A stretch of DNA of 64,000 nt. Origin: an uncultured Gammaproteobacteria bacterium (lineage in GTDB: Bacteria; Pseudomonadota; Gammaproteobacteria; CAWCPV01). Shown one piece after another: positions 34,601 through 55,419 of this stretch. Below the pieces are notes generated by a model. That model was given only the letters and a program-made list of their open reading frames with translations, was not told where the DNA came from and made no database searches. Numbering within the stretch: the first letter of the stretch is position 1; the number at the start of each line of letters is the position of its first letter. A program made the translations under genes and the position numbers. The DNA lies in assembly GCA_963797555.1 (NCBI GenBank), contig CAWCPV010000018.1, forward strand, positions 1-64,000, in the 5' to 3' direction.

Positions 34601-37466
34601 CGACCGGTAAAAACCGGCAAGACCGGTGTGCGCTTTGCGCTCGGAGTCGCTCGATGTCGTCCATTCCAGCAAGCGCCGGTGCGTGACCAGCAGGCGTATG
34701 CCGGTACGCACGATGGCGTCCAGGCTGAAGAAGGCGTCGTACGGCAGGACCGCGAGCGTGAACCCTGCCTGCGCGGAGTGCCGACCCATGGAACGCAGTA
34801 GGGTGCGCAGGTGCATCTCGAGCGGCAGGTCCGTCGGCTTTTGGAATAGCTCTACCGCGGATGCCAGCAGCGGGGGGGCCAGGATGATGCCGACCACCAC
34901 CAGGGTCCAGAACCAGCTGCGGCCAGAGCACCGTCCACGCTAGCACGAGCAGCAGCGTGAGAGCGAAGGGCACCAGGCTGCGGCGCAGGTTATCGAGAAC
35001 CTTCCAGCGCGAGAGTCCCGAGAGCGGATTTTTCACACGCCGCGCATCCGCACCCGGGACGCGCGGCAGCAGCCACCACGCGATCTGCCAATCGCCGCGG
35101 ATCCAGCGATGCCGCCGGCTCACGTCCGCGTTGTAGCCTGGCGGATAGCCCTCATACAACTGGACATCGCTGACCAGCGCCGAGCGCGCATAGCCGCCCT
35201 CCAGCAGGTCGTGGCTCAGGATCAGGTTTTCCGGGAAACGCCCCTCCAGCGCTCTCTGGAACGCATCGACATCGTAGATCCCCTTGCCGATGAACGACCC
35301 TTCATGGAACAGGTCCTGATACACGTCCGAGACCACGCGCGTGTAGGGGTCGATGCCCGGCTCCCCGCCGAAGAGCTGCATGAACCACGAGCGGACCGTG
35401 CCTGGCAGACTCACCGCCACGCGCGGCTGGAGGATGCTGTAACCCTCGCAGACACGCTGCTTGGCTGCATCGTAGCGCGGGCGATTGAGCGGGTGCGCCA
35501 TCGTGCCCACGAGCTGCCGCGCCGCGTCACGCGGCAACAGCGTATCCGTATCCAGCGTGATCACGTACTTCACGCCCGTCAGGACCGATGTCTCCCCCAC
35601 GATCAGCGTGAAGCGATCCCCGGCTCCGCCCCGCAACAAGGCGTTCAGCTCCGCAAGCTTCCCGCGTTTGCGCTCGTAGCCCATCCAGACCCCTTCCTGC
35701 GGATTCCAGCGGCGCGGGCGATGGAACAGGAAGAAGGCGTCGGGTCTCTCGGCCTGGTACTTTTCGTTGAGCGCCTCGATGCCTTCCCGTAACAGTTGCA
35801 GCAACGGCTCGTCCTCCGACATCGCCTGCTGCGACGCATCGAACGGGTCGGTCAGCAGGCCGAAGTGCAGATGGCGGTCGCGGTTTGCCAGGTAGCGGAC
35901 TTCCAGCCCTTCCAGCAGCTCATTGATGCCCCTGGGGCTGGTAAGCAGCGTCGGGACCACCACCAGCGTGCGCGACTGGGGCGGGATTCCACTGGAAAAG
36001 TCCATGCGCGGCAAGGCGTGCGGCTTCACCAGTAGCATCGCCAGCCAGTTCACCAGGGCGACCGCAAGATGACCAGCACACAGCAACAACAGGACGGCGA
36101 GCAACGCCACAGCCCATACGCTAGCCCCGTCGGCGTGCGCCCGCGCGAGCAAGACCGTGGTGAGGAGTGCCGTTACCAAAGTGATCATGCCGAGATAGAA
36201 AAACAGCGGGAAGCGGTGTCCGAGCTTGTTAAGGACCTGACCAAGAGATCGGCGCATCTGCGCCGCCCGCTCGAGCTGCGGCAAGCCTTTATCGATGAGG
36301 TAATAGCCGACGTGCGCCGTCCGGTCCTCTGCGCCCGCCCCCGCCACACCCGTGCGTGCCAGGTCTATCGCCGCGCGCGCCACTTCACCCTCGGTCAATG
36401 GGCTGCGCTTTGCGATGCGCTCGATCTCGTGGCGGTAACGGTCCCGCGTGGCGAAATCCATATCGCCGTAGACATCCGCCGGGTCGTCGTGCAGCGCGTG
36501 GTCGACCACACTCATGGTCTCGACGAATTCGCGCCAGTCCATGGACTCCAGGAACCGGAGACTGCCGATGCTATTGCTGATCGAGACCTGTTCGGCCGCC
36601 TGACGCTGGCCCTCCAACCGAACCATTTGTGCGATGGTGAGGCTCTGCTCCGACAGGCGCTGCTCGATCCAGGTGAGCGGCAGGGCGAGTGCGGGATTCT
36701 GGCCCTGCAACCGGCGCGCAAGCTCCGCCACGAACGCGCTCGACAGCGACGGGTTGGAGCGCGCCATATCCGCCACTTCCAGGATCAGGCCCTGGGGGTC
36801 TTTCTCCGTGACCTCCGTCATCCGGTCCGTCCAGTAGTGGGCGCTGTCATGGTCTATCCTGCGGGCCGCGACGGGTGCCGCCACGCGCCGCAGGTTCTCG
36901 ATGAGCGCGAGGCGCAGCATGATCGGGATCGCCCATAGCTCGCCCAGCTTGAGCGGGGTATGCGTCTGGTAAGCGGCTATGAAGCTGCTGAGGTTCTCCG
37001 CATCCACCCTGCCATCGGCGTGTGCGATCAGCTCCAGGGCGATATCGTAGACACGCGGGTATCGCATCGACGCGCCGTTGCGCAGGCGCGGCAGCTCCCG
37101 GCTGTATCCTTTGGGCAGGTGACGGCGCGCCAGTCGGATCTGCTCTTCGATCAGGTAGAAGTTGTCGAGCAGCCATTCGGCCGCGGGCGTGATCCGGCGA
37201 TTCGCCTCGACCGCCGCCGACACCAACTCGTGGGCGTGCAGAAGAACGCCTTCATTCTCAGCCAGCCGCGGCAGCAGCCGGTCCGGGCCGCGCCTCGGAT
37301 CGATCTCGTGCCGCGCCGCCAGTGCCTTCGCATGCTGGTGGAATTGATCGACGCTGAACAGCTCCGCCCGCAACGCGTGCTCATCACTGTACTCTCGCGC
37401 CACGCTGTTTCTGTCGATGCGCGTCCTCAAGCGGTTAAGGCCATTGCGAATCGCCTGACTAGTCAT
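28634..37466 (-). pseudogene. Cyclic beta-1,2-glucan synthase (Cgs/NdvB/ChvB), at least 4 frameshifts
   Basis: EWLLDNFYLIEEQI, YERKRGKL, SHDLLEG, RRHRWIRGDWQ, PPDNYQE, YDLLASEARL, GH94 motifs GFRDQLQD, GDWNDGMN, ENGGQYTHAA. Confidence 0.92.
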
Positions 37467-37711
37467 CCATATCCACCATCCGTTCTGGAGCTGCCATTGT
37501 AAACGTGCGGTGAGGGGACGCGCAGCCGAGGCTGTCTCTCACACATAGCGCGAAATGGCGAGGGCGCACGGTCCGAAGCGCTGCTGCGGGTTTTCGATGC
37601 GCGCATTGAGGCGTTGAGCAGGGTACAGACCGCCGAGGAAGCTCGCCGGCTCGGACTGAACGCCTGTGACGTGCATTGGATTGCAGGTGGCCGCCTCCGG
37701 CCCAGGTTGCC

Positions 37712-38344
37712 TCAGACTTCAGTCTGCTCAGCCATCTCCAGAGCGTCGTCGACTTCGATGCCGAGGTGGCGAACGGTGCTCTCCAGCTTGGTGTGACCGA
37801 GGAGCAACTGGACCGCCCGCAGGTTCTTGGTCCGCCGATAAATCAGCATTGCCTTCGTGCGGCGCAGCGAGTGGGTGCCAAAGTCCTTGGGGTTGAGGCC
37901 GATCAGGGTCGCCCAAGCTTTGACGACCCTCGAATACTGCCGGGTGGACAAGTGGGGCGACTTGCAGTGGCGGCTAGGAAACAGGAACTGGTCGGACCTC
38001 GAGCCGACTGCCGCAATCCAGGCCCCGACCGCGTCTCGGGTCTGCTCCGTCAGCTCGAACCGGACTGGCTGACCGGTCTTGCGCTGAACGACGCTCGCTC
38101 GGGCGAGGACGCGACCACCGTGGGCCACATCCCCGACCTGGAGGTGCACGAGATCACAACCGCGCAGCTTGCTATCGATGGCGAGGTTGAACAGGGCGAG
38201 ATCCCGAATCCGCTTGGCGATCTGCAGCCGGATGCGGATGGTCCAGATCTCCTTGAGCTTGAAGGGAGGTTTCGGTCCGACCAGCCTGCCCTTGTGCCAG
38301 GGCCGCGGGCGGCCCGTCGCTTGGCGCGGGTGCTCAGCGCACAT
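37712..38344 (-). CDS. Small tyrosine recombinase (catalytic domain only), catalytic Tyr replaced by His
   Basis: LFNLAIDSKLRGCDLV, QRKTG, GTHSLRRTK, LLGHTKLESTVRHLG. Confidence 0.85.
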   Translation of the reverse strand: MCAEHPRQATGRPRPWHKGRLVGPKPPFKLKEIWTIRIRLQIAKRIRDLALFNLAIDSKLRGCDLVHLQVGDVAHGGRVLARASVVQRKTGQPVRFELTEQTRDAVGAWIAAVGSRSDQFLFPSRHCKSPHLSTRQYSRVVKAWATLIGLNPKDFGTHSLRRTKAMLIYRRTKNLRAVQLLLGHTKLESTVRHLGIEVDDALEMAEQTEV

Positions 38345-38474
38345 GGTAGGGTCCCCCAGGGTGGTCGAGGAACCATCAGTCTGCGCGACCACCCCAACGG
38401 TCGTTTAAACGACCCTGAACGGCCATTCGGATCGCGCATTTTGCGGCGGCCACTGACACCGGATACATCGGCGA

Positions 38475-38580
38475 GATGTTCGCTGTGCGGCCCCGATGCG
38501 GATCATCGCCTTCGGCACCGGTACGGCCTCGGTCACCCGCATGCTTCAGCCCCTCGGGGAACCAACTCGGCCGCCCACGC
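38475..38580 (+). pseudogene. IS91-type transposase C-terminal remnant
   Basis: CSLCG..MRIIAF...SVTRMLQPLGEP pattern. Confidence 0.5.
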
Positions 38581-38789
38581 GCCTACTGGTGGATTCTACC
38601 TCCGGCCGCCTGCTCGATGCGCTCGTTAGGCGCCGAAAGGCGGGCCAATGCGGCCTAGCCCCATTCTCTGGATTAGCTTTGGGCTGTGGACTTGTTCACG
38701 GCCACGGCGGCCCGATGAGAGCCTTCAGAGCCTCCTCGTCCAGCCGTTGACCCATCCTGCTCCCCATCCCGTCAGGTCACCGCCCAGGC

Positions 38790-39809
38790 GGTGCTCGAGC
38801 CCCATTACGCCTGCACCGAGCAGCGTATGCGCGAACACTCGGTGGTGCTGTGCATCCAAGACACCACGGAAGGGGACTATAGCGGCAAGAACGACATCGT
38901 CGGGCTGGACCCGCTCAACTACGAGACCCGCCGTGGATTGTACCTGCACCCCACCCTCGCCGTGACCCCCGAGCGGGTGCCCTTGGGGGCCCGCCGGCCC
39001 ATCGAGGAAAAAGAGAGCCTGCGTTGGCTGGAGGGTTATCGACGCGTCTCGGAGCTCATCGAGTCCCTGCCCGAGACCCGGTTGGTCTATGTCGCCGACC
39101 GCGAGGCCGACCTCTACGCCGGTGCTGGCCGAGGCCGAATTCGACCTGCCCGCCACCGCTAGGCGTCCGGCGCGGCGCATCCACCAGCAACTGCGCGTCG
39201 CACGCCTCACTTTCAAGGCCCCGCATCGCTCGGACCGCACCCTGGCGGACATCGAGGTGAGCGCCGTGCTGGCCCGCGAGGTGGACCCGCCCCAGGGCGA
39301 GGAGCCCATCGAGTGGCTGCTCCTCACCAGCCTCCCCGTCGAGACCGCCGAGCAGGCCCTGGAGAAGCTCCAATGGTACCTCTGCCGGTGGCAAATCGAG
39401 GTGTTCTTCAAGATCCTCAAAAGCGGCTGCCGCATCGAGAAGCTGCAGCTCGAGACCTTCGAACGCCTGGAGCCCGCGCTCGCCTTCTACCTCATCATCG
39501 CCTGGCGGGTGCTCTACCTCACCCTGCTCGGGCGCGACTGCCCGCAGATGCCCTGCAACGTGGTGTTCGCCGAGGAGGAATGGCGCGCGGTGTATATCGT
39601 CACCAAGCGCCAGCCCCCGCCTGAGACACCCCCCCCGCTCGATGCGATGGTGCGTATGGTGGCGAGCTTCGGCGGCCTCCTCAATCGCAAGGGCGACGGC
39701 TTCCCGGGTCCGCAAAGCCTGTGGATCGGGCTGCAGCGAACCCGCGACTTCGTGCTCGCCATGGACGCACAACGGGCCTCACAGAGCCCGAGATGTGTAT
39801 AAGGACATG
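38790..39809 (+). pseudogene. IS4-family (IS50-like) element remnant with right end
   Basis: CIQDTT, VADREAD, YLCRWQIEVFFKILKSGC; end AGATGTGTATAAGGACATG. Confidence 0.85.
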
Positions 39810-39925
39810 AGCTGTACCGCGTCGAGAAGGAAGCCAGGAATGCCAGGCAGGGGCTGTGGGGGCTGCCGGAGGCTCAGAGGGTGGCGCCCTGGGAGTGGAG
39901 GCATCATGCGCGTTCGGTGCAATGA
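39809..39925 (+). pseudogene. Thermonuclease (SNase) C-terminal remnant
   Basis: ELYRVEKEARNARQGLWGLPEAQRVAPWEWR matches the SNase C-terminal E..AR....GLW....PWEWR pattern. Confidence 0.65.
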
Positions 39926-39942
39926 AAAGCCGCCTCCTTTCA

Positions 39943-40013
39943 ACGCTGCCAGGTGCGGACCCGCATGCAGGGTCGTGTGGGGGCTGGAGGTTAAACACCC
40001 CCGGCTACCCGAT
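39943..40013 (+). ncRNA. Group IIC intron domain V-VI remnant inserted in an attC R'' box
   Basis: GGTGCGGACCCGCATGCAGGGTCGTGTGGGGG...CCCCCGGCTACCCGAT followed by TAGGC (GT|TAGGC site). Confidence 0.7.
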
Positions 40014-41960
40014 TAGGCACCCCTATCGTTCACCGGCTTGTAGGTCAGAATAGCCACCCCGTTGCCGCTTGTCTTCGAGTGAGCAAGCTGCAAGTGCTTG
40101 ATTGCCTTCCCGTCATGGAATAAACGTGCGCCGCGACCAGCGACCACAGGGTATATTTCAAGCCGCAACTCATCGAGCAGCTTTGATGCAGCAGACCTGA
40201 TTCCGTGACTTCGCGTCTCAGCGGATGGCCGCAACCTGCTGATTTATCATTGCAGTTCAGCTAAAATCGGGCCGCACTCCAGCTCACCCGGCAGGTGAAC
40301 GATGAAGCGGTTCATCTTGGAGCAGTCCGATGAGGAATTTTACACCTCCCATTCTGGTCTGGCCTTGGTCGGTCTTTGCGTCAACCGCTTTAGCGGGTTG
40401 GGCAAGGCGCTGAAGCAGGCGATCCCGCTACGCCACGGCATCTCCCATGAAGACGTAGCCAAGAGCTATCTGGGGTTGATGTGTTTGGGCAAGAGCGACT
40501 TCGAAGCGGTCTCCAACGTCCGAGAGGACGATTTCTTCCGCCAGGCGTTGGGGCTGGAGCGGGTACCCTCGCCAGAAACGCTGAGGCAGCGTCTCGACGA
40601 GCACGCAGCGGTCCTGCGGGTAAGGTCATTGACGAGGCCGATATCGAGTTCATGGTCAACGCCAAGGCACCGGTCAGTGCGCTCAAGACCGGTCATGTGC
40701 CGGTGGACATCGATGTCTTTCCCATGGACAACTCCGGGACCAAGCAAGAAGGAGTCTCGCGCACCTACCACGGCTATGACGGTTATGCGCCGATCGCGAC
40801 CTACGTGGGAACCGAAGGGTGGTGCGTCGGCTGTGAGCTGCGAGAAGGCAAGCAGCACAGTCAGAAGGAATTCGGCTAGGTCTGGGAGCGCATCCTGCCG
40901 CGGGCCAGGCGCCTGACCAAACTGCCGCTGCTGGTGCGCCAGGACAGCGCCCACGACGCCTTGGAGAACCGGCTGCGCTACCTCGAAGAGGAGGTGGACT
41001 TCATTATCCAGTGGAACCCTCGGGGCGAGGACCCTGCCCATTGGCTGGAGCGCGCCGAGCGCCAAGGGGCATGGGAGACACCCCGACCCGGCAAGCGCGT
41101 GGCGCTGTTCAGCGTCGTCGAGGAGCACCCCCATCGGGAGCACACCTACCACGTTCGCCGGGTGATGCGGGTGACCGAGCGCACCATCGACAAGAAGGGC
41201 CAGGCGCTGTTGGTACCGGAGCTGGAGCTCGATGGCTGGTGGACCTCGCTCGCCTATCCGGACGCGGAGATCGTCGCCCTGTACCGGGACCTCCGAGCAG
41301 TTCCACAGCGAGTTCAAGACCGACCTCGATATCGAACGGCTGCCCTCCGGGAAATTCGACACCAATGACCTGGTGCTCGCCTTTGCCGTGTTCGCCTACA
41401 ACATCCTGCGCTTCATCGGGCTCATCGGGCTGACCGGCGAGTCGGCTCCCCTGCGCCATCCGGCCAAGCGCCGGCGGATCAAGACCGTCCTCCAGGAACT
41501 GATGTACCTCGCCGCCCGGTTGGTCGCCACCGCCCGCAGACTGAAGCTGCGCTTCAGCCGGCTCTGTCCCGGCTTCCGCGCCTTCGAGCAGCTGTATTAC
41601 CAACTCGCCTTCGGGTAGCTAGGACGACCTCCATAGAAACTCGACCCGGGCCTCACCAGACCCCGGTGTAAACCTACGCCCGAAATTCAGCGTCCAAGCC
41701 TCAAAGCCCCGCCGTCACTCCTGCGCCGACGAGGGTCTACGCCCGCTGTACATAGCCGGCGTCACCGGTTGGCTAAAAACTAACCAACTCAACTGAGAAT
41801 AGCTCCCATTCTCTCGCGCCCCGGGCGCTCGGAGATTCAAGTCACGGATCCAGGGCAGAGATTCAACCAATGTACCGCTGCCATGCACGCCGATGTTCTT
41901 CCCAGGGCGCTGCTTCAAGGTCGTGATCGAATCGGCGAGGTTGCCTTTGAGGAGCGTCAC
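40013..41960 (-). pseudogene. Dihydrofolate reductase/RibD C-terminal family cassette gene, 5'-deleted and split by IS1380
   Basis: LKQRPGKNIGVHGSGTLVESL | LLDELRLEIYPVVAGRGARLF...GVAILTY; stop coincides with R''-like GCCTA(A). Confidence 0.82.
40196..41854 (+). mobile_element. IS1380-family element, copy 2 (defective transposase)
   Basis: Same ends and length (1659 bp) as copy 1; 5-bp TSD GCAGA. Confidence 0.92.
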
Positions 41961-41961
41961 A

Positions 41962-42022
41962 TTCCCGCTCGCTCCACGGAGCGAGTTTCGAGGCCGCGGT
42001 CTGCTGTAGCGCCGGGTTAGGT
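41962..42022 (-). other. Truncated attC site of the hydrolase cassette
   Basis: Minus strand ACCTAAC-CCGGC-GCTACAGC-AGACCGCGGC; gene stop lies inside R''; distal arm deleted. Confidence 0.7.
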
Positions 42023-42919
42023 GGTCGATTGGGTTCCAAGCATCAGGTCCTGCTGGCTCCCTGCACCTGGCATTGACAGAATTAACCGCCCCACCTGTTC
42101 AGGCTCATCCAATTGGACGAAGTGTCGAGCGCCCGGGATAAGGAATAGTTCAGACTGTGGAAGAAACTCATGGAACGTCCGGGCGACACCGCTATTCAGG
42201 GTATAATCGGCGTCGCCGAAGATGATCCGGACCGGGCGCCTGAACTCCCGCAGCCTGGGGATCTTTTCTGTGTGCGCCCTGACCATGGGCAATAGATCTT
42301 CGTTCAGGCGAAAGAAGGCAGGACGGGCACTCGGCGTGGCGTCGAACTGTTGATACAGCAGCGGCACGAATTCACGTCTGACATCCGCGTCTCGGATAAA
42401 CCTCCCGACCTGCCACCAGTACATCCGGCGGAAGATCCAATTCCCGAACATCTGCGACACATGCCTCGCGATGCTTCTGATCACCGGCGTGGAGAAGAGC
42501 CAGATCGCCTCCGGCCGCCGGAGCGTCGGCATTTCGCAGTAGTACGTGTTCAACAGCACCAACCGGGCCACCCGCTCGGGGTGGTCGAGCGCCCAGTCAA
42601 TGGCCGGCGGGCCCGAGGCGTCGTGCGCGACGAGGGTGACTTGCTCAAGCCCCAGTTGGGTGATGACCGCATCCAGGTCACCGACTTGATTGGCGGTGGT
42701 ATAAGGGTAGCCGGACGGCTTATCCGAACTGCCCCACCCGAGAAAATCAAATGTGACGACTCGGCGCGGCGGCGAAAGGTGAGGGAGCAGACGGTCGTAG
42801 AGGTGCATATTGTCCGGGAACCCGTGCATCAGAATGATCGGCGGTTCCGCCCCCGGATGGTCGCGGACGTAGATCCGGTGTCCGTTCCGCTGCACAAGAG
42901 TCTCTTGGTAGACCATCAT
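42017..42919 (-). CDS. Alpha/beta fold hydrolase (haloalkane dehalogenase/epoxide hydrolase-like), first cassette of the left array
   Basis: LMHGFPD, DFLGWGSSDKP, VAHDASG, ARHFVQLDEPE. Confidence 0.9.
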   Translation of the reverse strand: MMVYQETLVQRNGHRIYVRDHPGAEPPIILMHGFPDNMHLYDRLLPHLSPPRRVVTFDFLGWGSSDKPSGYPYTTANQVGDLDAVITQLGLEQVTLVAHDASGPPAIDWALDHPERVARLVLLNTYYCEMPTLRRPEAIWLFSTPVIRSIARHVSQMFGNWIFRRMYWWQVGRFIRDADVRREFVPLLYQQFDATPSARPAFFRLNEDLLPMVRAHTEKIPRLREFRRPVRIIFGDADYTLNSGVARTFHEFLPQSELFLIPGARHFVQLDEPEQVGRLILSMPGAGSQQDLMLGTQSTT

Positions 42920-42948
42920 TCCCTCTGGAAGCAATGTCGCCTACCGAA

Positions 42949-43005
42949 TAGCATTTTATCCGTCGTGCGGCAGCATGATGGATAAAATGTGTTGAACTGA
43001 ACCGC
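42949..43005 (-). repeat. Left 57-bp terminal inverted repeat / putative recombination site
   Basis: Exact reverse complement of 45333-45389; internal hairpin CATTTTATCC..GGATAAAATG; GGTAGGC box at 42945-42939. Confidence 0.92.
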
Positions 43006-43252
43006 CGGATTCAGGCGGCCGGCCTATGGGGATGGTATGGGGGCAGTCCCGGGTTGGGGCCGCTTGGGGTGTGGCTGGTCGGGTGGTTATGTGGTGCATG
43101 GACCGCTCTCGCGGTCTCGGTCGGGTGTGATGTCCCCCGCCAGGCACTATGGCAAAGGTGCCGTGTACGGGTCAAGGGCTGGGGAAGACCAAAGGGGACT
43201 GTGGCCGGCTTGCAGGGAAGCGGTCGAGGGAGGCTTGGGCGGGTGAGGGTCG

Positions 43253-44470
43253 TCATGAGAGCCGTGGGGGTCCGGTCGCTTTCGGGGTGGGGGGTGTAGC
43301 CCTGAGCGGTGCCCCGAGGACTACCCGCGTGAGCCGCCCTTCTGCGCAGTAGGGGCAGCGCTGGATATCGATGCCGGTGAGGCGCAGCATGGTTTCCTGC
43401 GCCGACTCCGGTTCCCGCGGTTGCGGCGCTGGCTGGCCGAGAGCCGCCCGGCACCCGTCCAGGCGCTCGGCGCGGCATCGGTTCGCCAGCAGTCCGTAAT
43501 GGCGGATACGCATGAAGCCGGGGGGGAGTACGTGGAGCAGGAAGCGGCGGATGAACTCCTCGGCCCCAAGACGCATCACCTTCACCCGATTGCCCCGGGC
43601 GTAGTCGCGGTAGCGGAAACGCACCGTGTCGTCTTCGAGATCGAGGAGCCGCTCGTGGCTGATCGCGATGCGGTGGGTATAGCGCCCGAGGTAGGCCAGC
43701 ACCTGCTCGGGACCGGCGAACGGAGGCTTGGAGTAGACCACCCAGTCCTGGGAGCGCAGCTCGGTAAGAAAACGGGCAAAGCCCGGGGGCTCGACGAGCC
43801 CCGCCAGCTCGCCGGTGAAGCGCAGCTCGCCTCGCCCGTGGGCCGCCTGCAACGCTTCCAGGTACTTGCCCCGGAACACCCGGGAGAGCGCCCGGACCGG
43901 AAACAGGAAGCCTCGCTTGGCGGGAATCCAGCGGGCGTCGACGGAGAGCGCCCCGCCGGTCACGACACAATGCACGTGGAGGTGTTGGCCGAGGTTCTGG
44001 CCCCAGGTGTGCAGCACCAGGGTCGCTCCGAGATCCCCGCCGAGCCACCGGGGATTTCTGCCGAAGCTGAGCAGCGTCTCGGAGGCGGCCTGAAACAGCA
44101 GCCCGTAAACCACCCGTGGGTTGCCCTGTGCCAGCGGGTTGAGGGTATGCGGCAAGGTGAACACCACGTGGAAGTACTCCACCGGCAAGAGTTCCGCACA
44201 GCGCGCCTGCAGCCAGTGCTCCTTGGCCAGCGTCTGGCCCTTGGGGCAGTGGCGGTTACGGCAGGAGTGGTAACGCAGCTCGATGCGCCCGCAGCGGTCG
44301 CACTGCACCGCTTGAGCGCCCAGGAGCGGCGTGCGGCAGGCCACGATGGCCCGCATCACCCGGTGCTGCTGAGCGCACAGCCGATGGGTCGCCCGGAAGC
44401 GCTCCCCGTGGGCGCGGAAGATATCCGCCACCTCCAGCCGCCGCCCCGCCGGCGCGGGACGGGTGCACAC
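43253..44470 (-). CDS. IS91-family HUH/Y2 rolling-circle transposase with N-terminal Zn-binding domain
   Basis: CRT..LG...CDRC...SCRNRHCPK, YFHVVFTLPH, LHTWGQNLGQHLHVH, YLGRYTHR, RIRHYG, CPYC. Confidence 0.93.
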   Translation of the reverse strand: MCTRPAPAGRRLEVADIFRAHGERFRATHRLCAQQHRVMRAIVACRTPLLGAQAVQCDRCGRIELRYHSCRNRHCPKGQTLAKEHWLQARCAELLPVEYFHVVFTLPHTLNPLAQGNPRVVYGLLFQAASETLLSFGRNPRWLGGDLGATLVLHTWGQNLGQHLHVHCVVTGGALSVDARWIPAKRGFLFPVRALSRVFRGKYLEALQAAHGRGELRFTGELAGLVEPPGFARFLTELRSQDWVVYSKPPFAGPEQVLAYLGRYTHRIAISHERLLDLEDDTVRFRYRDYARGNRVKVMRLGAEEFIRRFLLHVLPPGFMRIRHYGLLANRCRAERLDGCRAALGQPAPQPREPESAQETMLRLTGIDIQRCPYCAEGRLTRVVLGAPLRATPPTPKATGPPRLS

Positions 44471-44473
44471 TGC

Positions 44474-45142
44474 CTAGAACTGCGTGGGGCTCTCGGGGAT
44501 CTCCAGCAGATCGAGCGGCGAGGCGGTGCCGGTGAGATGCGGCCTTGCCAGGTGAAAGTAGCGCAGGGTAGTGCTGAGGTGCCCGTGGCCCAACAGGCGC
44601 TGGATAGTGTGCAGATCCACTCCCGCCTCCAGCAAGTGGGTGGCGAAGGCATGCCTCAGCCCGTGGATGCCGCAGCGCTTGGTGATGCCCGCCTTGCGCT
44701 TGGCTGCATAGTAAATCTTCTGGGCCGAACGCGGATCGATGGGATGCACCCCATCTCGCAGGGGAAAGAGCCAGTGCTTGGGCCGATAAGCCATCCAGTA
44801 GCGGCGAACAGCCGCTTGATCTCCTCGCGGCTCAGGATCTCGGGAAGCCTGGAGGGCTGTCGGGGGCTCGGCAGACAGAGGCTCGGCCTCGGAGCGCCCC
44901 AGGCTGACTCGGTAGAAGAACTTCAGGCCATTGGCGACGATGTTGCAGGTGCTGCTGGAAAGTCCCCGCTCCGGAAGCCCGTGCAGCAGGTAGCTCTGTA
45001 CCTCGGGCTCGGAGATCTCATCGGGGCGGCGTCGGTAGAACCTGGCCAGACCCCGGACCGCATTGAGATAAGCCTCGCGGGTGCGCACCGCCATCCCCCG
45101 CAGCACCACGTCGTTGTCCATCTTCGTGCGTAGCTCGCTCAT
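44474..45142 (-). pseudogene. Tyrosine recombinase with SAM-like N-domain (non-IntI), internal deletion plus frameshift
   Basis: [12 protein letters not shown]..., [36 protein letters not shown]; [16 protein letters not shown] is in a shifted frame and box I (GLR) is missing. Confidence 0.88.
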
Positions 45143-45332
45143 GACCGCCTCCTTTCAAGCAGTGAGTGGGAAAGACCCACGCAAAGCTTGGCAGAGCGCT
45201 CATGAGACCTCGCAAAACGTCAGGCGAAGATGGCGATCCGGCCAATGGCCGGCCGCATTACAGCGCCAAAATAGCGGAGCAGTTCAGCCAGAAACAATGC
45301 GAAAACGTCAGGGAAACGAAACCACCGCGTAA

Positions 45333-45389
45333 GCGGTTCAGTTCAACACATTTTATCCATCATGCTGCCGCACGACGGATAAAATGCTA
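45333..45389 (+). repeat. Right 57-bp terminal inverted repeat / putative attI-equivalent
   Basis: GCGGTTCAGTTCAACACATTTTATCCATCATGCTGCCGCACGACGGATAAAATGCTA, followed by GTC-GTTAGCT (45393-45399). Confidence 0.92.
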
Positions 45390-45423
45390 GTCGTTAGCTG
45401 CAGAAAGTATATCGAGGTAACAC

Positions 45424-46122
45424 ATGACGCACCATGAAGTACATAGATCACATCGCGTAGGTTGGCTGCGCGCCGCTGTTTTGGGTGCAAATGACGGCAT
45501 TGTGTCTACAGCGAGTCTTATTATTGGTGTTGCCGCTGCAAGTACCACACAAGCAAGCATTCTTCTTGCCGGCGTTGCTGGATTGGTAGCAGGAGCCATG
45601 TCTATGGCGGCTGGTGAGTATGTGTCCGTCAGTTCTCAGTCCGATACAGAGAATGCGGATCTGGCACTCGAAACGACGTCATTAGAGAACGATATAGAAT
45701 TCGAAAAAGATGAGCTCGCAAAAATATACCAAAACAGGGGCCTTGAGCTTGTTTTAGCAAAACAAGTTGCTGAACAGCTAATGGCTAACGACGCGTTAGG
45801 GGCGCACGCTCGAGATGAAATTGGTATATCGGAGAGTGTCAGTGCCCGGCCAGTTCAAGCAGCTTTTTATTCAGCCGGTACATTTACAGTCGGTGCCGCA
45901 CTACCTTTAATAGTGGCATGGGCCACACCAGGTAACTATTTAATATCAGCAGTTGCAGCTTCGTCTCTTGTATTTCTAGCACTACTTGGTGGGGTTGCTG
46001 CACGTGTGGGTGGCGCTCCAATTACTGTCGGCGCAATCAGAGTGACTTTTTGGGGTGCGCTAGCTATGGGTTTAACCGGTTTAACCGCAGTAGTAGGTCG
46101 TATATTTGATGCGGTTGCATGA
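45424..46122 (+). CDS. VIT1/CCC1-family Fe/Mn transporter, first cassette of the right array
   Basis: LRAAVLGANDGIVS, AGAMSMAAGEYVSVSSQ; visibly AT-richer than the flanks. Confidence 0.95.
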   Translation: MTHHEVHRSHRVGWLRAAVLGANDGIVSTASLIIGVAAASTTQASILLAGVAGLVAGAMSMAAGEYVSVSSQSDTENADLALETTSLENDIEFEKDELAKIYQNRGLELVLAKQVAEQLMANDALGAHARDEIGISESVSARPVQAAFYSAGTFTVGAALPLIVAWATPGNYLISAVAASSLVFLALLGGVAARVGGAPITVGAIRVTFWGALAMGLTGLTAVVGRIFDAVA

Positions 46123-46159
46123 TGAGGCATTTATCGATTGTGCGCACGTCATTAAATAC

Positions 46160-46219
46160 AGCTAACAATTGGGTAAAGTTGGCGCCAAAAACCGGCCCGA
46201 CTTACCCAGAACGTTAGAG
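46160..46219 (+). other. attC site (complete)
   Basis: R'' AGCTAAC, arms TGGGTAAAGTTGG / CCGACTTACCCA with one extra base, R' GTTAGAG. Confidence 0.9.
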
Positions 46220-46246
46220 CGCACCAATCCTCCCTATTTGCAAACT

Positions 46247-46882
46247 ATGAGCGACGAATACCAACACCCCGCTTTTCAACCACCGCCCCACCCGGATGTT
46301 GTTCTATGGCGATACATGGGTTTCGAGAAGTTCGACTGGCCAGTGAAGAATCAAAGATTGTTTATGCCATCTGCCCAGTTCTTAGGTGATCCACTCGAAG
46401 GGGTGGCACCAGCCGGCCATATAGAATGGTGGATGGATCTTGCCGAAAATGCTGAGTCCGAGGTAAAGCGTGAAATTATCGAAAACAATCGTAAAAAGCT
46501 ATCCGCGTTTGCAGAGGCCTTTCGTCCCAATTATTACGTGAGCTGTTGGCATATGAATGCCGTTGAGAGTTCGAAGATGTGGTGTGCTTACACTGAATCA
46601 TCCGAGGCAGTTGCAGTAACAACCACCTATCGTGTGCTGCGGGAAGCTCTTCCGAAATATGTTGAAATTGGCATGGTCCGTTATATAGATTACGCAAATG
46701 AGAAACTTCCGTCATTGAATATGTTCGAGTACATCACGCATAAGAACATCAACTTTTGCTTTGAGCGCGAATTGCGCGCTGTTGCCTTTCCTCCCGCCAT
46801 TGAAGAGCTAGGTGCAGGGCATTTCCAAGAACATCACTTTGAAGGGGCTAAAAGGGGCCAGGGTCGAATTATTTTGCTATGA
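46247..46882 (+). CDS. DUF2971-like cassette protein, 3' end disrupted by the RAYT element
   Basis: LWRYM..EKF, DPLEG, YVSCWHMN..ES..MW..Y, FERELRA; starts 27 nt after the attC. Confidence 0.7.
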   Translation: MSDEYQHPAFQPPPHPDVVLWRYMGFEKFDWPVKNQRLFMPSAQFLGDPLEGVAPAGHIEWWMDLAENAESEVKREIIENNRKKLSAFAEAFRPNYYVSCWHMNAVESSKMWCAYTESSEAVAVTTTYRVLREALPKYVEIGMVRYIDYANEKLPSLNMFEYITHKNINFCFERELRAVAFPPAIEELGAGHFQEHHFEGAKRGQGRIILL

Positions 46883-46898
46883 TACTAATCCTTTCTTA

Positions 46899-47972
46899 AG
46901 TAAGGCCATATCAGACAGCGTAGCAGCAATGCGGATGCATGAAAAAGCCTTTGACGATTTCTGGCAGCTTCTGGAGCCGGCGCAAAGCACCGAGGAGTTT
47001 GCTCTTGAGATCCTCTTTGCTTTCCACCCGGCGCTTGGCGACGCGGGCTTTCACATGCCCCCAAACCTGTTCGTCGGGATTGAGTTGGGGCGAGTACGGG
47101 GGGAGGAAGAACAGCTTAAGGCGCCCGTTCTGTTCGCCGATGAAGTCCTGGATCAATCGTGCCTTGTGGATGGGATGGCCATCGACGATGAGGAAGACCG
47201 GCCGGGTGGCGCCCACCAGCAGGCGCTTGAGGAATTCCTTGAACACCGCGGCGGTCACCGTCCCCTCGTGCACCATGAAGCGCAAGCCCCCGCGGGCGCT
47301 CACCGCCGAGAGCATGGCGAGCGAGAACCGCGCCCCGGTCACCGCGACCACCGGGGTCTTGCCCATCGGCGCCCAAGTGGTGCCGGCGTGGTAGTCGGAG
47401 CGCATCCCCGACTCATCCCCAAAGTAGATGGTCGCCCCCACGCGCTTGGCCTCGGCCTGGATGGCGGGAAATTGCTCTTTCTGCCAGCGCTCGACCAGCA
47501 CCGGATCGCGCTGCCAGGCACGGTAGAGCGGCTTCTGGGCAGTGAATCCCAGCACCCGCATCACCCGCCTGACGGCGGAGTCCGAAAGGCGCTTGTTGAA
47601 CCGCCGCTCGATCAACCTGCCGATGAGCGGCAGGGTCCACAGCGCAAACTCGAATCGGAACTGCTGCGGCGTGTGCTCGCGCACCGCCCCCGCCAGCCAG
47701 CGCATCTCCTCGGCGCCAAGCAGCGGCGGGCGGCCCGGGATCGGCTTGGCCAACAGCGCGTTCTGTCCCCCCGAGGCAAATGCCGAGAGCCAGCGAAACA
47801 CGGTGCGAATGTTCAACCCGAAGGCCTGCGCTACGCTCTGTACCGTCTGTCCGTGACGCACCGCTTTCACGGCTTGCTGGCGCAGCACCTGCAGGCTCCT
47901 ATGATCGAGCTTGCGCCCGTCCGATTCGCGCTTGCATTTCATGCCCCCATTGTACCAACATATGGCTTTACT
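46899..47972 (-). mobile_element. IS630-family element C (transposase 46911-47942, intact)
   Basis: IRs AGTAAGGCCATAT / ATATGGCTTTACT with TA duplication; FGDESG, IVDGHPIH, LPPYSPQLNPDEQVW. Confidence 0.92.
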
Positions 47973-47976
47973 TAAA

Positions 47977-48739
47977 ATGGACTTAGTAAGTCCATTGCCC
48001 CGCCGCCCCCGCATCCATCTTGATCGCGTACCGCTGCACATCGTGCAACGCGGGCACAACCGCCAACCGTGCTTCTTTGGCGAAGAAGATTATCAGGCAT
48101 ACCTCCACTGGTTGGGCGAAGCGTTGAAGAAAGAGCAATGCGCGCTTCACGCCTACGCGTTGATGACCAACCACGTCCACCTGCTTCTGACGCCGGAACA
48201 TGCCCAAGCGGTTCCCCGGCTAATCATTGCCTTGGGGCGGCGCTACGTGCAGTATATCAACACCACCTACCGCCGGACCGGCACCTTGTGGGATAGCCTG
48301 GGATAGCCGTTACAAATCCTCGCTGATCCAAGCCGAAACCTACTTGCTTGCCTGCCAGCGATACATCGAGCTCAACCCCGTACGGGCGGCCATGGTGGAT
48401 GATCCTGCGCATTACCGCTGGACGAGCTACCGTCACAACGCCCTGGGGCAGGTCAACCCTTGCCTTACCCCCCATCCTCTGTATCTGTCGCTGGGCAGGG
48501 ATGCGAAGGAAAGGCAAGCTGCCTACCGGAGCCTGTTCCGGGCGCAACTGGACCAAGAAGCGGTCAACGACCTACGGCTGGCGCTCAATCAGAATCAGCC
48601 TTTGGGCAATGCACGGTTTTATGCCAACATTGAGGCAGCGACCGGCCAACGGCGGGAGCCGAAGCCGCGAGGCAGGCCACGTGCCAGGCGAGACGACTCC
48701 GCCGCGCATGACCCAGGTCAGGGAGAGCTGGCGGTATGA
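47977..48739 (+). pseudogene. RAYT / IS200-like Y1 HUH transposase, frameshifted by a 10-bp duplication
   Basis: PRRPR..HIVQRGHNRQPCF, YALMTNHVHLL, GTLWDS|RYKS, YIELNPVRA, YRWTSY. Confidence 0.9.
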
Positions 48740-48812
48740 ATCCAGCTTTATGCAGCAGAAATATGCGAGCCTGGCCCCTTTAATCGCTGTTCACATCACC
48801 TTGGAGATCGTC

Positions 48813-49190
48813 ATGAAATATCTGCTTGTTCTCGCAACTCTTGTGGCAAGCGGTACGGCATCAGCTGCGAGGCTGCCGTGCTCAATCCACGCCAAGACGG
48901 GCGCTTCCGCAGCCACGCTCCAGAGCCTTAGCAAAATATCGATCGAACAAGCACGGGCAACTGCTCTCTCCGCCGTCGGTGCACAATCGACGGCGGTGGC
49001 CGAGGGGGAGCTTGAAGCCGAGCACGGTTGTCTTGTCTACTCGTTCGACATCCGTCTCTCTCCTCAGGCTACTGGGGTAGAGGAGGTCATGGTCGATGCT
49101 GGTAACGGCAAGGTGTTGTCGCATAAGCATGAAACACCGCAGCAAGAAGCCACTGAGAAAGCTAAGGATGCAGCTGCTAGTCACAAGTAG
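48813..49190 (+). CDS. PepSY-domain secreted protein (cassette gene)
   Basis: Signal peptide; ISIEQARATAL, ELEAEHGCLVYSFDI, EVMVDAGNGKVL; attC follows. Confidence 0.85.
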   Translation: MKYLLVLATLVASGTASAARLPCSIHAKTGASAATLQSLSKISIEQARATALSAVGAQSTAVAEGELEAEHGCLVYSFDIRLSPQATGVEEVMVDAGNGKVLSHKHETPQQEATEKAKDAAASHK

Positions 49191-49218
49191 TCACTGCAAT
49201 TAGGTAAGCGACGTTGCC

Positions 49219-49314
49219 GCCCAACCCTGCGCTCCAGCCGACGGGCACGCCTTCGGCGTGCATTCCCTCACAACGCTGCGCGTTGTTCGGCGCGGCTGAG
49301 CTTGATCGTTCGGC
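49219..49314 (+). other. attC site (complete)
   Basis: R'' GCCCAAC, L'' GCTCCAGC, L' GCTGAGC, R' GTTCGGC. Confidence 0.85.
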
Positions 49315-49577
49315 GGGAATGGCTCGTCGACGTTTCGCACGGGCGTGGGGCCCTGTTTTATTCATCCAGGAGGTTCGGGACCATGCGTCAAATAAATTGA
49401 TTGCGACCTGCCTTGCGACAATCCTTTTCGTGGGCCAGCAGGCGATTGCGGCTGACCAGGCACAGAAGGCGGACGCTGCTGATACATGCGGAATGGGGTC
49501 AGACACGATTGGGTAGTCAACGACACTGCCGGTTTTCCAAGTCCTAGTCGAAAACGTCAATGACGGAGGTCTACCAA

Positions 49578-50015
49578 ATGTCACGGGTAAGCACCTATCT
49601 GAACTTTTCTCGCTCCACGGAACAAGCGTTCGTCTTCTACCGATCCATCTTCGGAGGCGAGTTCACTGGTCCCGTTCACCGATTCAGCGAAGTCCCCGCA
49701 GCGCCCGGGCAGCCACCGTTGGCCGAGTCGGACAAGAACCTCGTAGTGCACGTCGAACTTCCAATCCTGGGCGGCCACGTACTGATGGGAACTGACGCCC
49801 CAGAGTCCATGGGCTTCTCGTTGACACCGGGCAACAACGTCTACATCAACCTCGAGCCCGATACCCGCGTAGAGACCGACAGACTCTTCAATGCCCTATC
49901 GGTCAACGGGAAAGTCGAGATGCCCCTGCAGGACATGTTCTGGGGCGCCTACTTCGGCAGCCTTACCGATCAGTTCGGGATCCGCTGGATGTTTAACTGC
50001 AGCGCCAAGACCTGA
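49578..50015 (+). CDS. VOC/PhnB-family glyoxalase-like protein (cassette gene)
   Basis: YLNF..TEQAF.FY..IFGG, MPLQDMFWGAYFGSLTDQFGIRWM. Confidence 0.9.
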   Translation: MSRVSTYLNFSRSTEQAFVFYRSIFGGEFTGPVHRFSEVPAAPGQPPLAESDKNLVVHVELPILGGHVLMGTDAPESMGFSLTPGNNVYINLEPDTRVETDRLFNALSVNGKVEMPLQDMFWGAYFGSLTDQFGIRWMFNCSAKT

Positions 50016-50037
50016 GTATCCCGCATCCCGAATGACG

Positions 50038-50060
50038 GCCTAACCCCCTCGGTCAAGCCC
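50038..50060 (+). other. attC 5' half (truncated)
   Basis: GCCTAAC-CCCCTC-GGTCAAGC 22 nt after the VOC stop, cut off by a REP-like sequence. Confidence 0.6.
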
Positions 50061-50062
50061 AC

Positions 50063-50093
50063 GTAGGATGCGGTGAACGAAGTGAACTGCATC
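50063..50093 (+). repeat. GTAG-type REP-like sequence
   Basis: GTAG-GATGCGGT...ACTGCATC imperfect palindrome. Confidence 0.65.
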
Positions 50094-50335
50094 GCTCGCG
50101 GAAAGAGCCGGACGAGAGAAGGTGATCGCGAACCGGATACCGCCGTACATGGCTTTCCTGGAGCCACACGGCAACCCGACACCGTCCTTCTGCAGGAGGG
50201 GGAGCGACTCCGAGATGGTAGAGGGTCGCGTCGTCCTCGTGGTCCAACGGCCGGCCGGTGTACGCGGCGCTCTTGCAGTGAAGCGCGAACTGTCCCGCTT
50301 GTGCCTCGGGGGGCCGACAAGAGGATATACGATCG

Positions 50336-50842
50336 TTACGGCGGGGGTTCTAGGGCGAGGATATACTCCCAATGGGCATCGCTCACTGGCATCACCGACA
50401 GCCGGTTGCCGCGGCGCACCAGTGAAAGCTCGGCAAACTCGGGCCGGTTTTTCAGTTCGACAAGCGGGATGAGCCGCGCTAGTCGGCGCACGAAGCGCAT
50501 GTCGACCACGACCCAGCGGGGGTTGTCGGGGCCGCTCTTGGGATCGTAGTAGCGGTGTTCCGGGTCGGAGGCGGTGGGGTCTGGGTAGGCCTCGCGTGCT
50601 ACCTCCATGATGCCGACGATGCCAGGGGTCTCGCAGTTGGAGTGATAAAAGAAAGACTGGTCTCCCCGCCTCATGGCGCGCAGGTAATTGCGCGCCTGGT
50701 AGTTGCGTACGCCGTCCCACGGGGTGGTCTGCCTCGGCTGGCGTTCGAGGTCGTCGATTCCGAATACGGTGGGCTCCGACTTCGTCAGCCAGTGGTGCAA
50801 CTCTGCGTCTCCGTCCGTCCAGCGCGGTGCCGCCGGGACCAC
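50336..50842 (-). CDS. EVE domain protein (start uncertain)
   Basis: WLTKSEP, WDGVRNYQARN, FFYHSNC, YYDPKS, RLSVMPV. Confidence 0.92.
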   Translation of the reverse strand: MVPAAPRWTDGDAELHHWLTKSEPTVFGIDDLERQPRQTTPWDGVRNYQARNYLRAMRRGDQSFFYHSNCETPGIVGIMEVAREAYPDPTASDPEHRYYDPKSGPDNPRWVVVDMRFVRRLARLIPLVELKNRPEFAELSLVRRGNRLSVMPVSDAHWEYILALEPPP

Positions 50843-50845
50843 GCC

Positions 50846-51439
50846 CTAGGTGCCGGGTTGGTGAAAACGCTCCTCGGTGATCACCCCTTGCAAGGCGATG
50901 TCCCAAGGCCGCACAGGCAGACTCGGGACCTCCTGGAAGGCGTAGGCCAGGCCGATTACGCGGGGGCGCCGCCAGTGCCTGCGCCGAGCCAGGAAGGCCA
51001 GCGTCCGGTCGTAGAATCCTCCGCCACTGCCCAGACGATTACCACATGAGTCAAAAGCCAGCAGCGGGGCCATGATGAGGTCCAGTTGCGATGCCCGCCG
51101 CATCAGGCGCAGCGGCCTGTCGGGCTCCGGGATGCCAAAGCGGTTGGGACGGAGCCGCTCTCCTGGTTCATAGGGGGCGAACCATAGGTGGTAGCTGTCC
51201 AACGAGTGCAGCACTGGCAGGTAAACGGCCTTGCCCATCCGCCAGGCACGGCGCACCACGGGCGTCGGGTCCATCTCCCCTCGATGTGAGATGTAACAGC
51301 CGATAGCCTTGCTGCGGCGGAACAGGGCGGTGCGAACGAACACCCACGCCGCGCGCTCGGCCAGTCGGGCGCGTTGCCAAGGGGGCAGGTGACTACGTCT
51401 GGCCCGAATCTGCGCCCGGAGCCGGGGGCGTGGATCCAT
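50846..51439 (-). CDS. fau: 5-formyltetrahydrofolate cyclo-ligase
   Basis: NRFGIPEP, PLLAFDSCGNRLGSGGGFYDR, PWDIAL; lies directly downstream of 6S RNA. Confidence 0.93.
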   Translation of the reverse strand: MDPRPRLRAQIRARRSHLPPWQRARLAERAAWVFVRTALFRRSKAIGCYISHRGEMDPTPVVRRAWRMGKAVYLPVLHSLDSYHLWFAPYEPGERLRPNRFGIPEPDRPLRLMRRASQLDLIMAPLLAFDSCGNRLGSGGGFYDRTLAFLARRRHWRRPRVIGLAYAFQEVPSLPVRPWDIALQGVITEERFHQPGT

Positions 51440-51449
51440 TTACGGGTGA

Positions 51450-51633
51450 GGCATCCCCCGCCTGTGCCGTGACGCACCTTCGCCCTTGAACCAGAGGTTC
51501 AGGTGGGGACCACAGCAACGTCTAAGGCTTCCCGCAACGCGGACATGCACACTAACGTCAGCATCAGGCCCCCAAGGCGCAGAGTTAGGCTCAAGAACAC
51601 TCGTGATGCGTCTCGAACACCGCAGGGGACACC
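51450..51633 (-). ncRNA. ssrS: 6S RNA
   Basis: About 184 nt between zapA and fau; complementary ends TCCCCTGCGGTG / CACAGGCGGGGGA; CTTGAGCC and CTGAACC..GGTTCAAGGG motifs. Confidence 0.88.
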
Positions 51634-51954
51634 TCATAGTATATTCTCTGTCGGGCGCTCGTGACTGAGCGCTGCATCGATTTTTTCTTGCAGGACCTGG
51701 ATCTGCCGGCTGACCAACTTTGCCTGATCCTCGCTCTGAATCTTGAAGCGCAACAGGTCATGGGCGATGTTCAGGGCCGCCATGATGGCAATGCGCTCAG
51801 CGCCGATGACCTTGCCGCGATCACGAATCTCGCGCATCTTGGCGTCCAGATAATTGGCAGCGCCAAGCAGGTTCTGCCGCTCGCTCGGCGCGCACGAGAC
51901 CCCATACTCCTTGCCGAGCAGAAGGATGCTCACGACATCAACGTCCTGTTCCAC
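51634..51954 (-). CDS. zapA: Cell division protein ZapA
   Basis: ILLLGKEYGVSC..ER..L..AA.YLD.KMREIR...ERIAIMAALNIAHDLL. Confidence 0.92.
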   Translation of the reverse strand: MEQDVDVVSILLLGKEYGVSCAPSERQNLLGAANYLDAKMREIRDRGKVIGAERIAIMAALNIAHDLLRFKIQSEDQAKLVSRQIQVLQEKIDAALSHERPTENIL

Positions 51955-51959
51955 GCCGC

Positions 51960-52181
51960 TTACTCCATGGCCTTGAGACGGGAGATCATGGCTTCTACCC
52001 GAGACTGCACCTGGGCATTCTTCTCGAACAAGGTAGCTCGCTCCGCCGCCAGAGCCGTAAGCTGCTTGCGCAGCAGGCGATTCTCCTCGCATACCTGCTC
52101 CCAGGATCGCACCAGTTCGTCCAAGCCGACCGAGAGCGTTTGAAGCCTATTCACCGCATTGTCTACATTTTCCCCGGGCAT
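51960..52181 (-). CDS. TIGR02449/ZapB-like coiled-coil protein
   Basis: EENRLLR....AERATL.EKN....SRVEAMISRLKAME; lies upstream of zapA. Confidence 0.85.
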   Translation of the reverse strand: MPGENVDNAVNRLQTLSVGLDELVRSWEQVCEENRLLRKQLTALAAERATLFEKNAQVQSRVEAMISRLKAME

Positions 52182-52539
52182 CGCGACTCCCAAGGTGCTC
52201 AGCCCCGTTCACGGGCAAACCGAAGATCCGCGTTCCAGCGCATTTGCGAAGAATGATAGCATAGGTTCTCGGAGCGCAGACAGAATGGCACAACCGTGCC
52301 AGGCGGCTGCTCTGCTGGCAGGACACCCTGGGGGAGGGTCATGAGAGATTAAGCTTGGCGCCAGGCGCGCTCCGGAGCGTTTTATGACACACTGCTTGCC
52401 GAATTCCAACGTGTGGGACGCTGCGGAGGTGATGCCGATGTCTGTGTCAGGCCGCGCCGATCGCGCTCGTCCGGTTCCGCCGGCCGGCGGCTCCTGGCGA
52501 GCGCGTGACCCATCAGCGACTCCGGGGGAGCGGATGTGA

Positions 52540-52680
52540 GAGCTTGTGAATAAATCTGCTGCGCGTCCCGATAGCCGCGTTGCGCGGTGCTCGCTCCTCG
52601 CCTATCTACTTGATATGTCTCGTCGCTGCGCTCCGTGCGCCTTGCTCTCGGGCCGCTCGCGACGATTTCTTCACAAGCTC
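52540..52680. mobile_element. 141-bp MITE-like element
   Basis: TIRs GAGCTTGTGAA / TTCACAAGCTC, TGA duplicated on both sides, internally palindromic. Confidence 0.8.
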
Positions 52681-52692
52681 TGAGTCCCGCAG

Positions 52693-55339: not shown

Positions 55340-55419
55340 TGATATGGGTGCTAGCGTGAACATGAAACCCCCCAGAACTCCTCTGCGTGCAGTGGATTTG
55401 ACTATCGTTCCACGGCTTC

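Follow-up and report, generated by a model that had tools for sequence, protein, structure and literature searches.

We analysed a stretch of 64,000 nt from an uncultured Gammaproteobacteria bacterium (contig CAWCPV010000018.1 of assembly GCA_963797555.1, positions 1 to 64,000), called the window below, which carries a two-gene element made of an IS91-family transposase and a tyrosine recombinase. A sequence-only reading of this DNA had proposed that the pair is a platform capturing gene cassettes at both of its ends. The transposase (43253-44470, minus strand) is an open frame of 405 aa with matches to Y2_Tnp, Zn_Tnp_IS91 and NF033538, the last at 444 bits against a cut-off of 125, which agrees with its earlier assignment as a Y2/HUH enzyme. 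The adjoining open reading frame (ORF; 44474-45142, minus strand) was recognized by profile matches, and by comparison with a copy on another contig of the same genome (C4), as an IntI-related tyrosine recombinase that is broken. It scores 99.6 bits with TIGR02249, far under the cut-off of 265, and therefore it is not an IntI, as had been anticipated. Relative to the C4 copy, the ORF has an additional base near its nt 262, which is not present in relatives on public contigs, plus a 190-nt deletion inside which the catalytic Arg/Lys stretch falls; judged by these lesions, the recombinase of the window copy is dead. In a sequence search against solved structures, an archaeal XerC-like protein (4a8e) and IntI4 (2a3v) came out nearest and nearly equal, and the IntI-specific insertion was missing from four intact homologues of the recombinase aligned to two IntI.

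The gene pair is enclosed by a perfect 57-bp inverted repeat (42949-43005 and 45333-45389), extended to 65 nt at 97%. Both boxes described beside the repeats are present, GTTAGCT at 45393 and, on the minus strand, GGTAGGC at 42945, and the genes on both flanks point away from the core, so that the layout reported for the locus is real. The left arm (42949-43005, minus strand) is a normal downstream end of the element, with a 15-bp terminal repeat and a conserved hairpin. It is followed by the downstream junction GGTAGGC (42939-42945, minus strand), the start of a hydrolase cassette, where 43/44 homologues of the clade called B below have GTT. On the other side, the upstream end (45325-45347, minus strand) is terIS-like, with a short CCGC-GTAA-GCGG hairpin adjoining an antisense GTTC, as in IS91 (PMC13181058). 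The right arm of the repeat (45333-45392, plus strand) corresponds to a sister copy's downstream hairpin, placed in reverse, with the target geometry GGATAA-6 nt-TT. On the sense strand of the element the upstream junction reads GGATAA-AATGTG-TTGAAC, and this fits the target geometry of the family, the inner arm and spacer of the sister hairpin being the putative target. An Rfam scan of 36000-52000 gave no match at the element, only a 6S RNA and one weak chance match.

The same genome contains further copies of the element, on C17 (99.9% identical) and twice on C4 (88%), together with remnants on C7, C8 and C13. The other downstream ends carry the hairpin, as such or in diverged form, in 6/6 cases, and an inverted hairpin was found at 0/4 of the other upstream ends, where only the 15-bp repeat is shared; these four upstream ends carry T where the window has the C typical of downstream ends. 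At C7:296345 the upstream end comes after a same-strand canonical attC, and the two C4 copies sit within one unidirectional array. The copies elsewhere thus resemble an ordinary cassette, and the symmetric form is peculiar to the window copy. The body of the sister element is absent from the window contig. The 99.9% identical copies at C17 48281 and at 42945 of the window both have the unusual downstream GGT and share about ten further bases, which suggests a single insertion that was rearranged later. One of the C4 copies, near 566330, has a tandem duplication of the terminal hairpin's right arm, as if a hairpin had been entered at its own site. The genome also has a true integron: contig C7 carries a full intI (502 bits against the cut-off of 265) with an attI-like site and four same-strand attC, and a capture platform independent of IntI is not supported.

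To place the window copy in its family, homologues were taken from two sets, the best 80 of 345 loci in genomes and the best 80 of at least 585 loci in metagenomes; a strict upstream end was located in 114 of them, a downstream junction in 114 and both in 86. The recombinase lies upstream of the transposase in 152/160. An inverted hairpin upstream was observed in 0/78 homologues with enough flank, L008 being a direct tandem; on this result and that for the four upstream ends of the same genome, a symmetric platform was rejected as the design of the family. The upstream end consists of NTT-GAACTRARCCGC and a short palindrome beside an antisense GTTC; the word itself is GTTC in 105, GTCC in 6 and GTAC in 3 of 114 ends, a count that is partly circular because the motif required such a word. 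In the downstream end, the complementary 15-mer is accompanied by a stem whose length varies and by CTATTC (77/114). Among four plasmid loci, the upstream end was found in three, the downstream hairpin in three and both in two. A strict intactness test on the recombinase was passed by 94/114 homologues (52/60, 27/38 and 15/16), and those that failed are mostly full length. Two clades were distinguished: clade A, mostly from alphaproteobacteria, whose recombinases group together with support of 100 in a quick tree, and clade B, from betaproteobacteria where named, and others. A search for relatives gave a match in 4/60 genomes of the same class, none nearer than class level.

The terminal hairpin is conserved as a structure. 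In an alignment of 45 sequences (the window and 44 hand-picked from 72 distinct ones), 95.8% of the stem cells were paired and 10/16 pairs showed compensatory changes; none of 500 shuffles reached as high, and slid controls gave 30-49%. When the two ends were joined in silico, as in a circle, the antisense strand folded better than the sense strand in 64/64 distinct junctions. Mismatches on the sense strand are A.C (95 in the outer and 86 in the inner arm) and hardly ever G.T (1 and 5), and they therefore correspond to wobble pairs on the antisense strand only. The fold predicted for the joined ends is forked. Its outer arm of 15 bp is present only in the circle, its inner arm is TTATC/GATAA, and the spacers measure 5-6 and 11 nt. 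The inner arm is the same in both clades and has no extrahelical bases; the stem is continuous over 16 bp, with a 5-6 nt bulge. Regarding the hallmarks of attC, R''/R' boxes and an antisense-biased fold are seen in all 64 rebuilt circle junctions, the R boxes are unpaired in the minimum-energy fold of the integrated state, and L boxes with extrahelical bases and canonical spacers were not found in the terminal hairpin. The suggestion that the HUH enzyme feeds single strands to an attC-like fold is accordingly supported in a modified form, in which the folding strand would be the circle junction of the element and not the arrays.

With respect to the insertion sites, the word beside the downstream end was GTTC, CTTG or GTCC in 0/109 cases at offsets 0 and 1, and in 4/109 at offset 3. 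Clade B junctions have GTT in 59/60 cases upstream and 43/44 downstream, and clade A junctions are variable. Of the 40 distinct clade B sites that have 250 nt of flank or more, 17 have the start of a divergent intI within 400 nt, as do 7/23 sites with 1300 nt or more (four full, three partial). Many of the remaining clade B sites resemble the same attI types by eye, and a canonical attC directly upstream was found at only 2/43. Downstream, a same-strand attC occurs within 1.5 kb at 8/20 GTT loci (opposite strand, 2; shuffles, 0/20) and at 1/45 non-GTT loci. At attI sites occupied by the element, the upstream intI is often truncated (L044, L140, L157, L098 and L133), hinting that the occupation of attI may go along with integron decay.

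Clade A elements have a target of the type CATAA-6 nt-TTATG, with A in 31 and T in 31 of 36 sites at positions -12/-11. A RIT-type recombinase gene was found within 350 nt at 16/33 clade A sites, lying 84-154 nt away and in 12 of them with the full trio, against 0-1 in control windows; the RIT queries were derived from the same clade A loci, and Pfam independently assigned a phage integrase to 16/114 neighbouring ORFs. A matching far RIT end was present 3.4-3.7 kb away in 9/11 cases. At L017, L023, L037, L041, L045 and L068 the side opposite the RIT end consists of two arms forming a 20-bp palindrome, which may define the target site of RITs, a site listed as untested in PMC10214605. The 6-nt spacer lies on the upstream side of the element in either orientation (L184/L188, L017), as would be left by one strand exchange at N|TT. 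Sister hairpins were also entered in direct orientation, twice at L194 and once each at L185, L186 and L191. No cassette arrays accompany clade A elements, and arrays of AA-N6-TT sites near them were considered and discarded (1 in 90 kb near the elements, 9 in 226 kb far from them and 6 in 316 kb of shuffled sequence). In genome G062, a different recombinase (about 360 aa) is present in more than a hundred near-identical copies.

We also looked for IntI in the hosts. None over the cut-off was found in 5/5 multi-copy clade A hosts (in one of them, 119 of 389 candidates were scored), in 4/5 further hosts, including a complete Alicyclobacillus genome, or in 5/5 clade B metagenome-assembled genomes, two of which have intI fragments; these hosts include incomplete genomes, which do not prove absence. 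Copies of the GTT type occur in an Acidobacteriota genome without an IntI match.

Returning to the flanks of the window copy, the VIT1 cassette (45393-46219, plus strand) begins with GTTAGCT, the exact complement of its R'' box AGCTAAC, and has a complete attC (46160-46219); a public contig covers part of the hairpin and continues into VIT1. It is followed by a truncated cassette ORF, DUF2971-like (46247-46882, plus strand), with no Pfam match at E<=0.05 and no attC. This ORF is interrupted by a transposase element of the Y1, REP-associated type with inverted ends (46851-48781), which contains an IS630-family ORF (46911-48059). Near-identical copies of the Y1 element are found on C4 and C2, the IS630 being inserted inside it. 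Further on lie a PepSY gene (48813-49314, plus strand) with a complete attC (49219-49314) and a VOC gene (49560-50060, plus strand) with the first half of an attC, interrupted by a dispersed repeat. To the left, an alpha/beta hydrolase gene (41960-42934, minus strand) also has the first half of an attC, and a RibD_C-like C-terminal fragment (40013-41960, minus strand) is split by an IS1380-family remnant (about 40196-41855). Of six units of ORF and attC initially described, VIT1 and PepSY hold in full, the VOC and hydrolase units have half an attC each, and the RibD_C fragment and the DUF2971-like ORF do not stand as such; the canonical attC of the window are two complete and two half sites, called with a heuristic finder and not with IntegronFinder. 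The cassette arrays are real but decayed.

Other features of the window lie further out. The segment 39918-40012 has dispersed relatives in the genome and adjoins the R''-like stop of the RibD_C fragment; we take it to resemble the 3' end of a group II intron, with no Rfam match. A second, unrelated small tyrosine recombinase of 226 aa is encoded at 37712-38392, with a lone attC-like half site near 38600-38635. A very large gene (30400-37466), presumably like cyclic beta-glucan synthase/phosphorylase, is split between two frames, and frameshifts are common across the window. On the right, the mobile cluster borders an EVE gene and the 6S RNA (51451-51631) within 50336-56661, where further genes are presumably formyltetrahydrofolate cyclo-ligase-like and zapA/pepP/ubiH-like.

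As for the locus itself, the window very probably holds a dead copy of an asymmetric recombinase-IS91 element among decaying integron cassettes, with a sister copy's hairpin attached to it in reverse. The upstream end of the window copy would have entered the terminal hairpin of the sister in reverse, and each hairpin would have retained or acquired ordinary cassettes, the IntI of C7 being the simplest means; the flanking cassettes were most likely assembled by IntI. A one-off inversion with recombination between copies would give the same product.

For the family, we lean slightly towards a mechanism in which a circle made by the HUH enzyme is integrated, through its folded junction, by the recombinase of the element. 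The transposase would copy out the antisense strand as far as the terIS-like GTTC, yielding a single-stranded circle, and the joined ends would fold into the forked stem. The IntI-related recombinase would exchange a single strand of this fold with a double-stranded core site of the form AA-6 nt-TT, in most cases accompanied by extra arm repeats, and the recombined junction would be resolved by replication. Such sites would come from other tyrosine-recombinase systems, namely attI, RIT ends and sister hairpins and, less often, attC. The product would resemble a gene cassette but carry its own enzymes. Locus and mechanism taken together form what we consider the best explanation, and a moderately probable one. 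More tentatively, the elements could represent a complete self-encoded system of single-strand integration, in which an HUH enzyme making the circle is combined with an IntI-related recombinase free of the I2 helix, which would integrate a fold with a bulge and no extrahelical base and be aimed at the core sites of other tyrosine recombinases. If this were true, read-through at terIS could carry neighbouring sequence along, and the family would be the kind of intermediate between CTX and integrons that was proposed but not found.

It should be noted that several observations weigh against this explanation. The upstream end in the window carries a C of the downstream type, and either branch migration or a point change would be needed for it. 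Copies with an identical recombinase lesion occupy different sites (C17/C18; the two C4 copies), so that they either moved with help in trans or were duplicated, as far as can be judged from their sequences. A clean 6-nt arm spacing was matched by motif in only 17/35 clade A and 12/48 clade B sites. The 2-nt carry-over from the downstream flank of the donor that would go with HUH excision was seen in 9/11 cases (p=0.11). Free circles were not observed and their junctions were rebuilt in silico, natural tandem joints being available only in L008 and L194, and the homologues are close relatives, several of them from one genome, and hence not independent. Finally, the junction rules mirror the recombinase of the neighbour, being strict for GTT at attI and tolerant at RIT ends.

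This last point is also expected under the main rival explanation, which we judge unlikely: the HUH enzyme would make the folded circle, the resident IntI, RitABC or possibly XerCD would integrate it, in the way that XerCD serves the CTX phage, and the element's own recombinase would resolve multimers or assist. The sites do adjoin intI or RIT genes, clade B keeps its GTT at both junctions while clade A varies, and recombinase-dead copies at several sites of a genome with an intact intI fit with help in trans. However, the inner arm TTATC/GATAA is common to both clades and lacks the extrahelical base of attC, and a single end design would need to suit unrelated enzymes. Moreover, of the 23 clade B sites that have 1.3 kb or more upstream, 16 have no intI in cis, no RIT-type gene is near 17/33 clade A sites, and the GTT-type copies of the Acidobacteriota genome have no IntI match. 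In another, very improbable explanation, the HUH enzyme alone would insert the element after a target such as YTAA or ATAA, with the recombinase as an accessory resolvase. The terIS-like upstream end (partly a product of how the motif was built) and the similar AA-containing antisense words at both junctions speak for it, but it leaves unexplained the second arm found 6 nt across the junction in clade A, the preference for recombinase core sites and the 15-bp stem that forms only in the circle.

The symmetric platform, with both ends capturing attC cassettes through a non-IntI recombinase, is largely refuted and we regard it as most improbable. The repeat and the divergent genes exist, cassettes start after both hairpins (perfectly so in VIT1), and the downstream attC of GTT loci exceed those of shuffles. 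Nevertheless, none of the 78 homologues is symmetric, the downstream cassettes are explained by insertion at attI ahead of an existing array, and non-GTT loci almost lack a downstream attC, target-like sites not being enriched nearby; the recombinase has no IntI insertion and is dead here, in a genome with a true intI. Equally improbable is that an assembly chimera of repeated copies produced the symmetric junction of the window. In its favour, none of the public contigs listed bridges the recombinase start and the right hairpin, and many window genes are frameshifted. Public runs contained no more than 0.38 of the words, in contigs that are fragmented. Against a chimera, the two element ends have just 15 bp in common, the right hairpin has a private base change, the junction obeys the target geometry of the family, and the family-level results are independent of it.

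The gene pair itself is already known. IS91-family elements with an upstream tyrosine recombinase, such as ISShvi3, have been catalogued, one ISShvi3 copy being recorded beside an attC, and these recombinases are described as the closest IntI homologues without the IntI insertion (10.1101/542381). In the parts of the literature searched (including PMC9345347, PMC5737581 and PMC3414803) there was no account of the terminal fold, its strand bias, single-crossover junctions or targeting of attI and RIT ends, nor an assigned role for the recombinase of these common IS91 relatives. The route of integration of this known pair appears to be undescribed; priority is uncertain, ISfinder/TnPedia and most subscription literature lying outside the search. 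We take ISSod25, ISWz1 and ISAzo26 of ISfinder to be further elements with the same gene pair. A two-gene system with defined ends and targets makes the origin of folded single-strand recombination directly testable, and intact copies exist in cultured soil bacteria. Intact homologues include those on pSBC1_3 of Caballeronia sp. SBC1 and pSJ05684a of Sinorhizobium sojae and, in clade B, the loci L029 and L048. From a practical point of view, hairpins and recombinases of these elements can be mistaken for attC and intI, and the elements mark attI sites and RIT ends in genomes.

Canonical elements of the IS91, IS801, IS1294 and ISCR groups share with this family the Y2 HUH transposase, here with its zinc-binding domain, a terIS palindrome beside GTTC (partly circular in our case, as mentioned above) and the lack of target duplication, and IS91 is reported to use bottom-strand single-stranded circles (PMC13181058). 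In contrast to them, the target beside oriIS is not GTTC or CTTG, the ends bear a 15-bp terminal inverted repeat and a long hairpin with covariation, and a recombinase is encoded in addition. Integrons use the bottom strand of attC. The elements resemble them in the cassette-like layout, the N|TT crossover, the antisense fold and the residence at attI and inside arrays, canonical attC cassettes being present nearby in the window. Unlike integrons, they have a recombinase without the IntI insertion, a 5-6 nt bulge instead of an extrahelical base, and enzymes inside the "cassette"; they sit in the attI sites of true intI genes, with no attI of their own followed by one unidirectional array and no sign of array building.

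The CTX attP has unequal spacers. With this phage the family would share an HUH-made single strand whose stem mimics double-stranded DNA, and recombination of that stem by an enzyme that lacks the I2 helix (PMC4792948). Escudero et al. (2016) regarded CTX as the sole reaction like cassette recombination, an incomplete parallel because no integrase is encoded (PMC4792948). Unlike CTX, which uses dif, and unlike the Xer-exploiting (IMEX) elements, which have no integrase of their own and enter dif through XerCD, the element encodes a recombinase, measures about 2.4-2.6 kb and enters dispersed attI sites and RIT ends. Strand-biased circularizing elements (SEs), GInt, RIT and Tn554 use tyrosine recombinases and one-strand exchange, keeping a 6-bp spacer on one side (PMC10214605). 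SEs have no HUH enzyme and form double-stranded circles, whereas the present elements combine a single recombinase with a Y2 transposase and have RITs as targets or neighbours. The IS1111 elements that target attC, like group IIC-attC introns, are also parasites of integron sites (PMC9229058), but they use other enzymes, and our elements are found mostly at attI-like sites. The family is widespread, and multi-copy in genomes where no IntI was found; its route of integration appears to lie between those of IS91, CTX and integrons.

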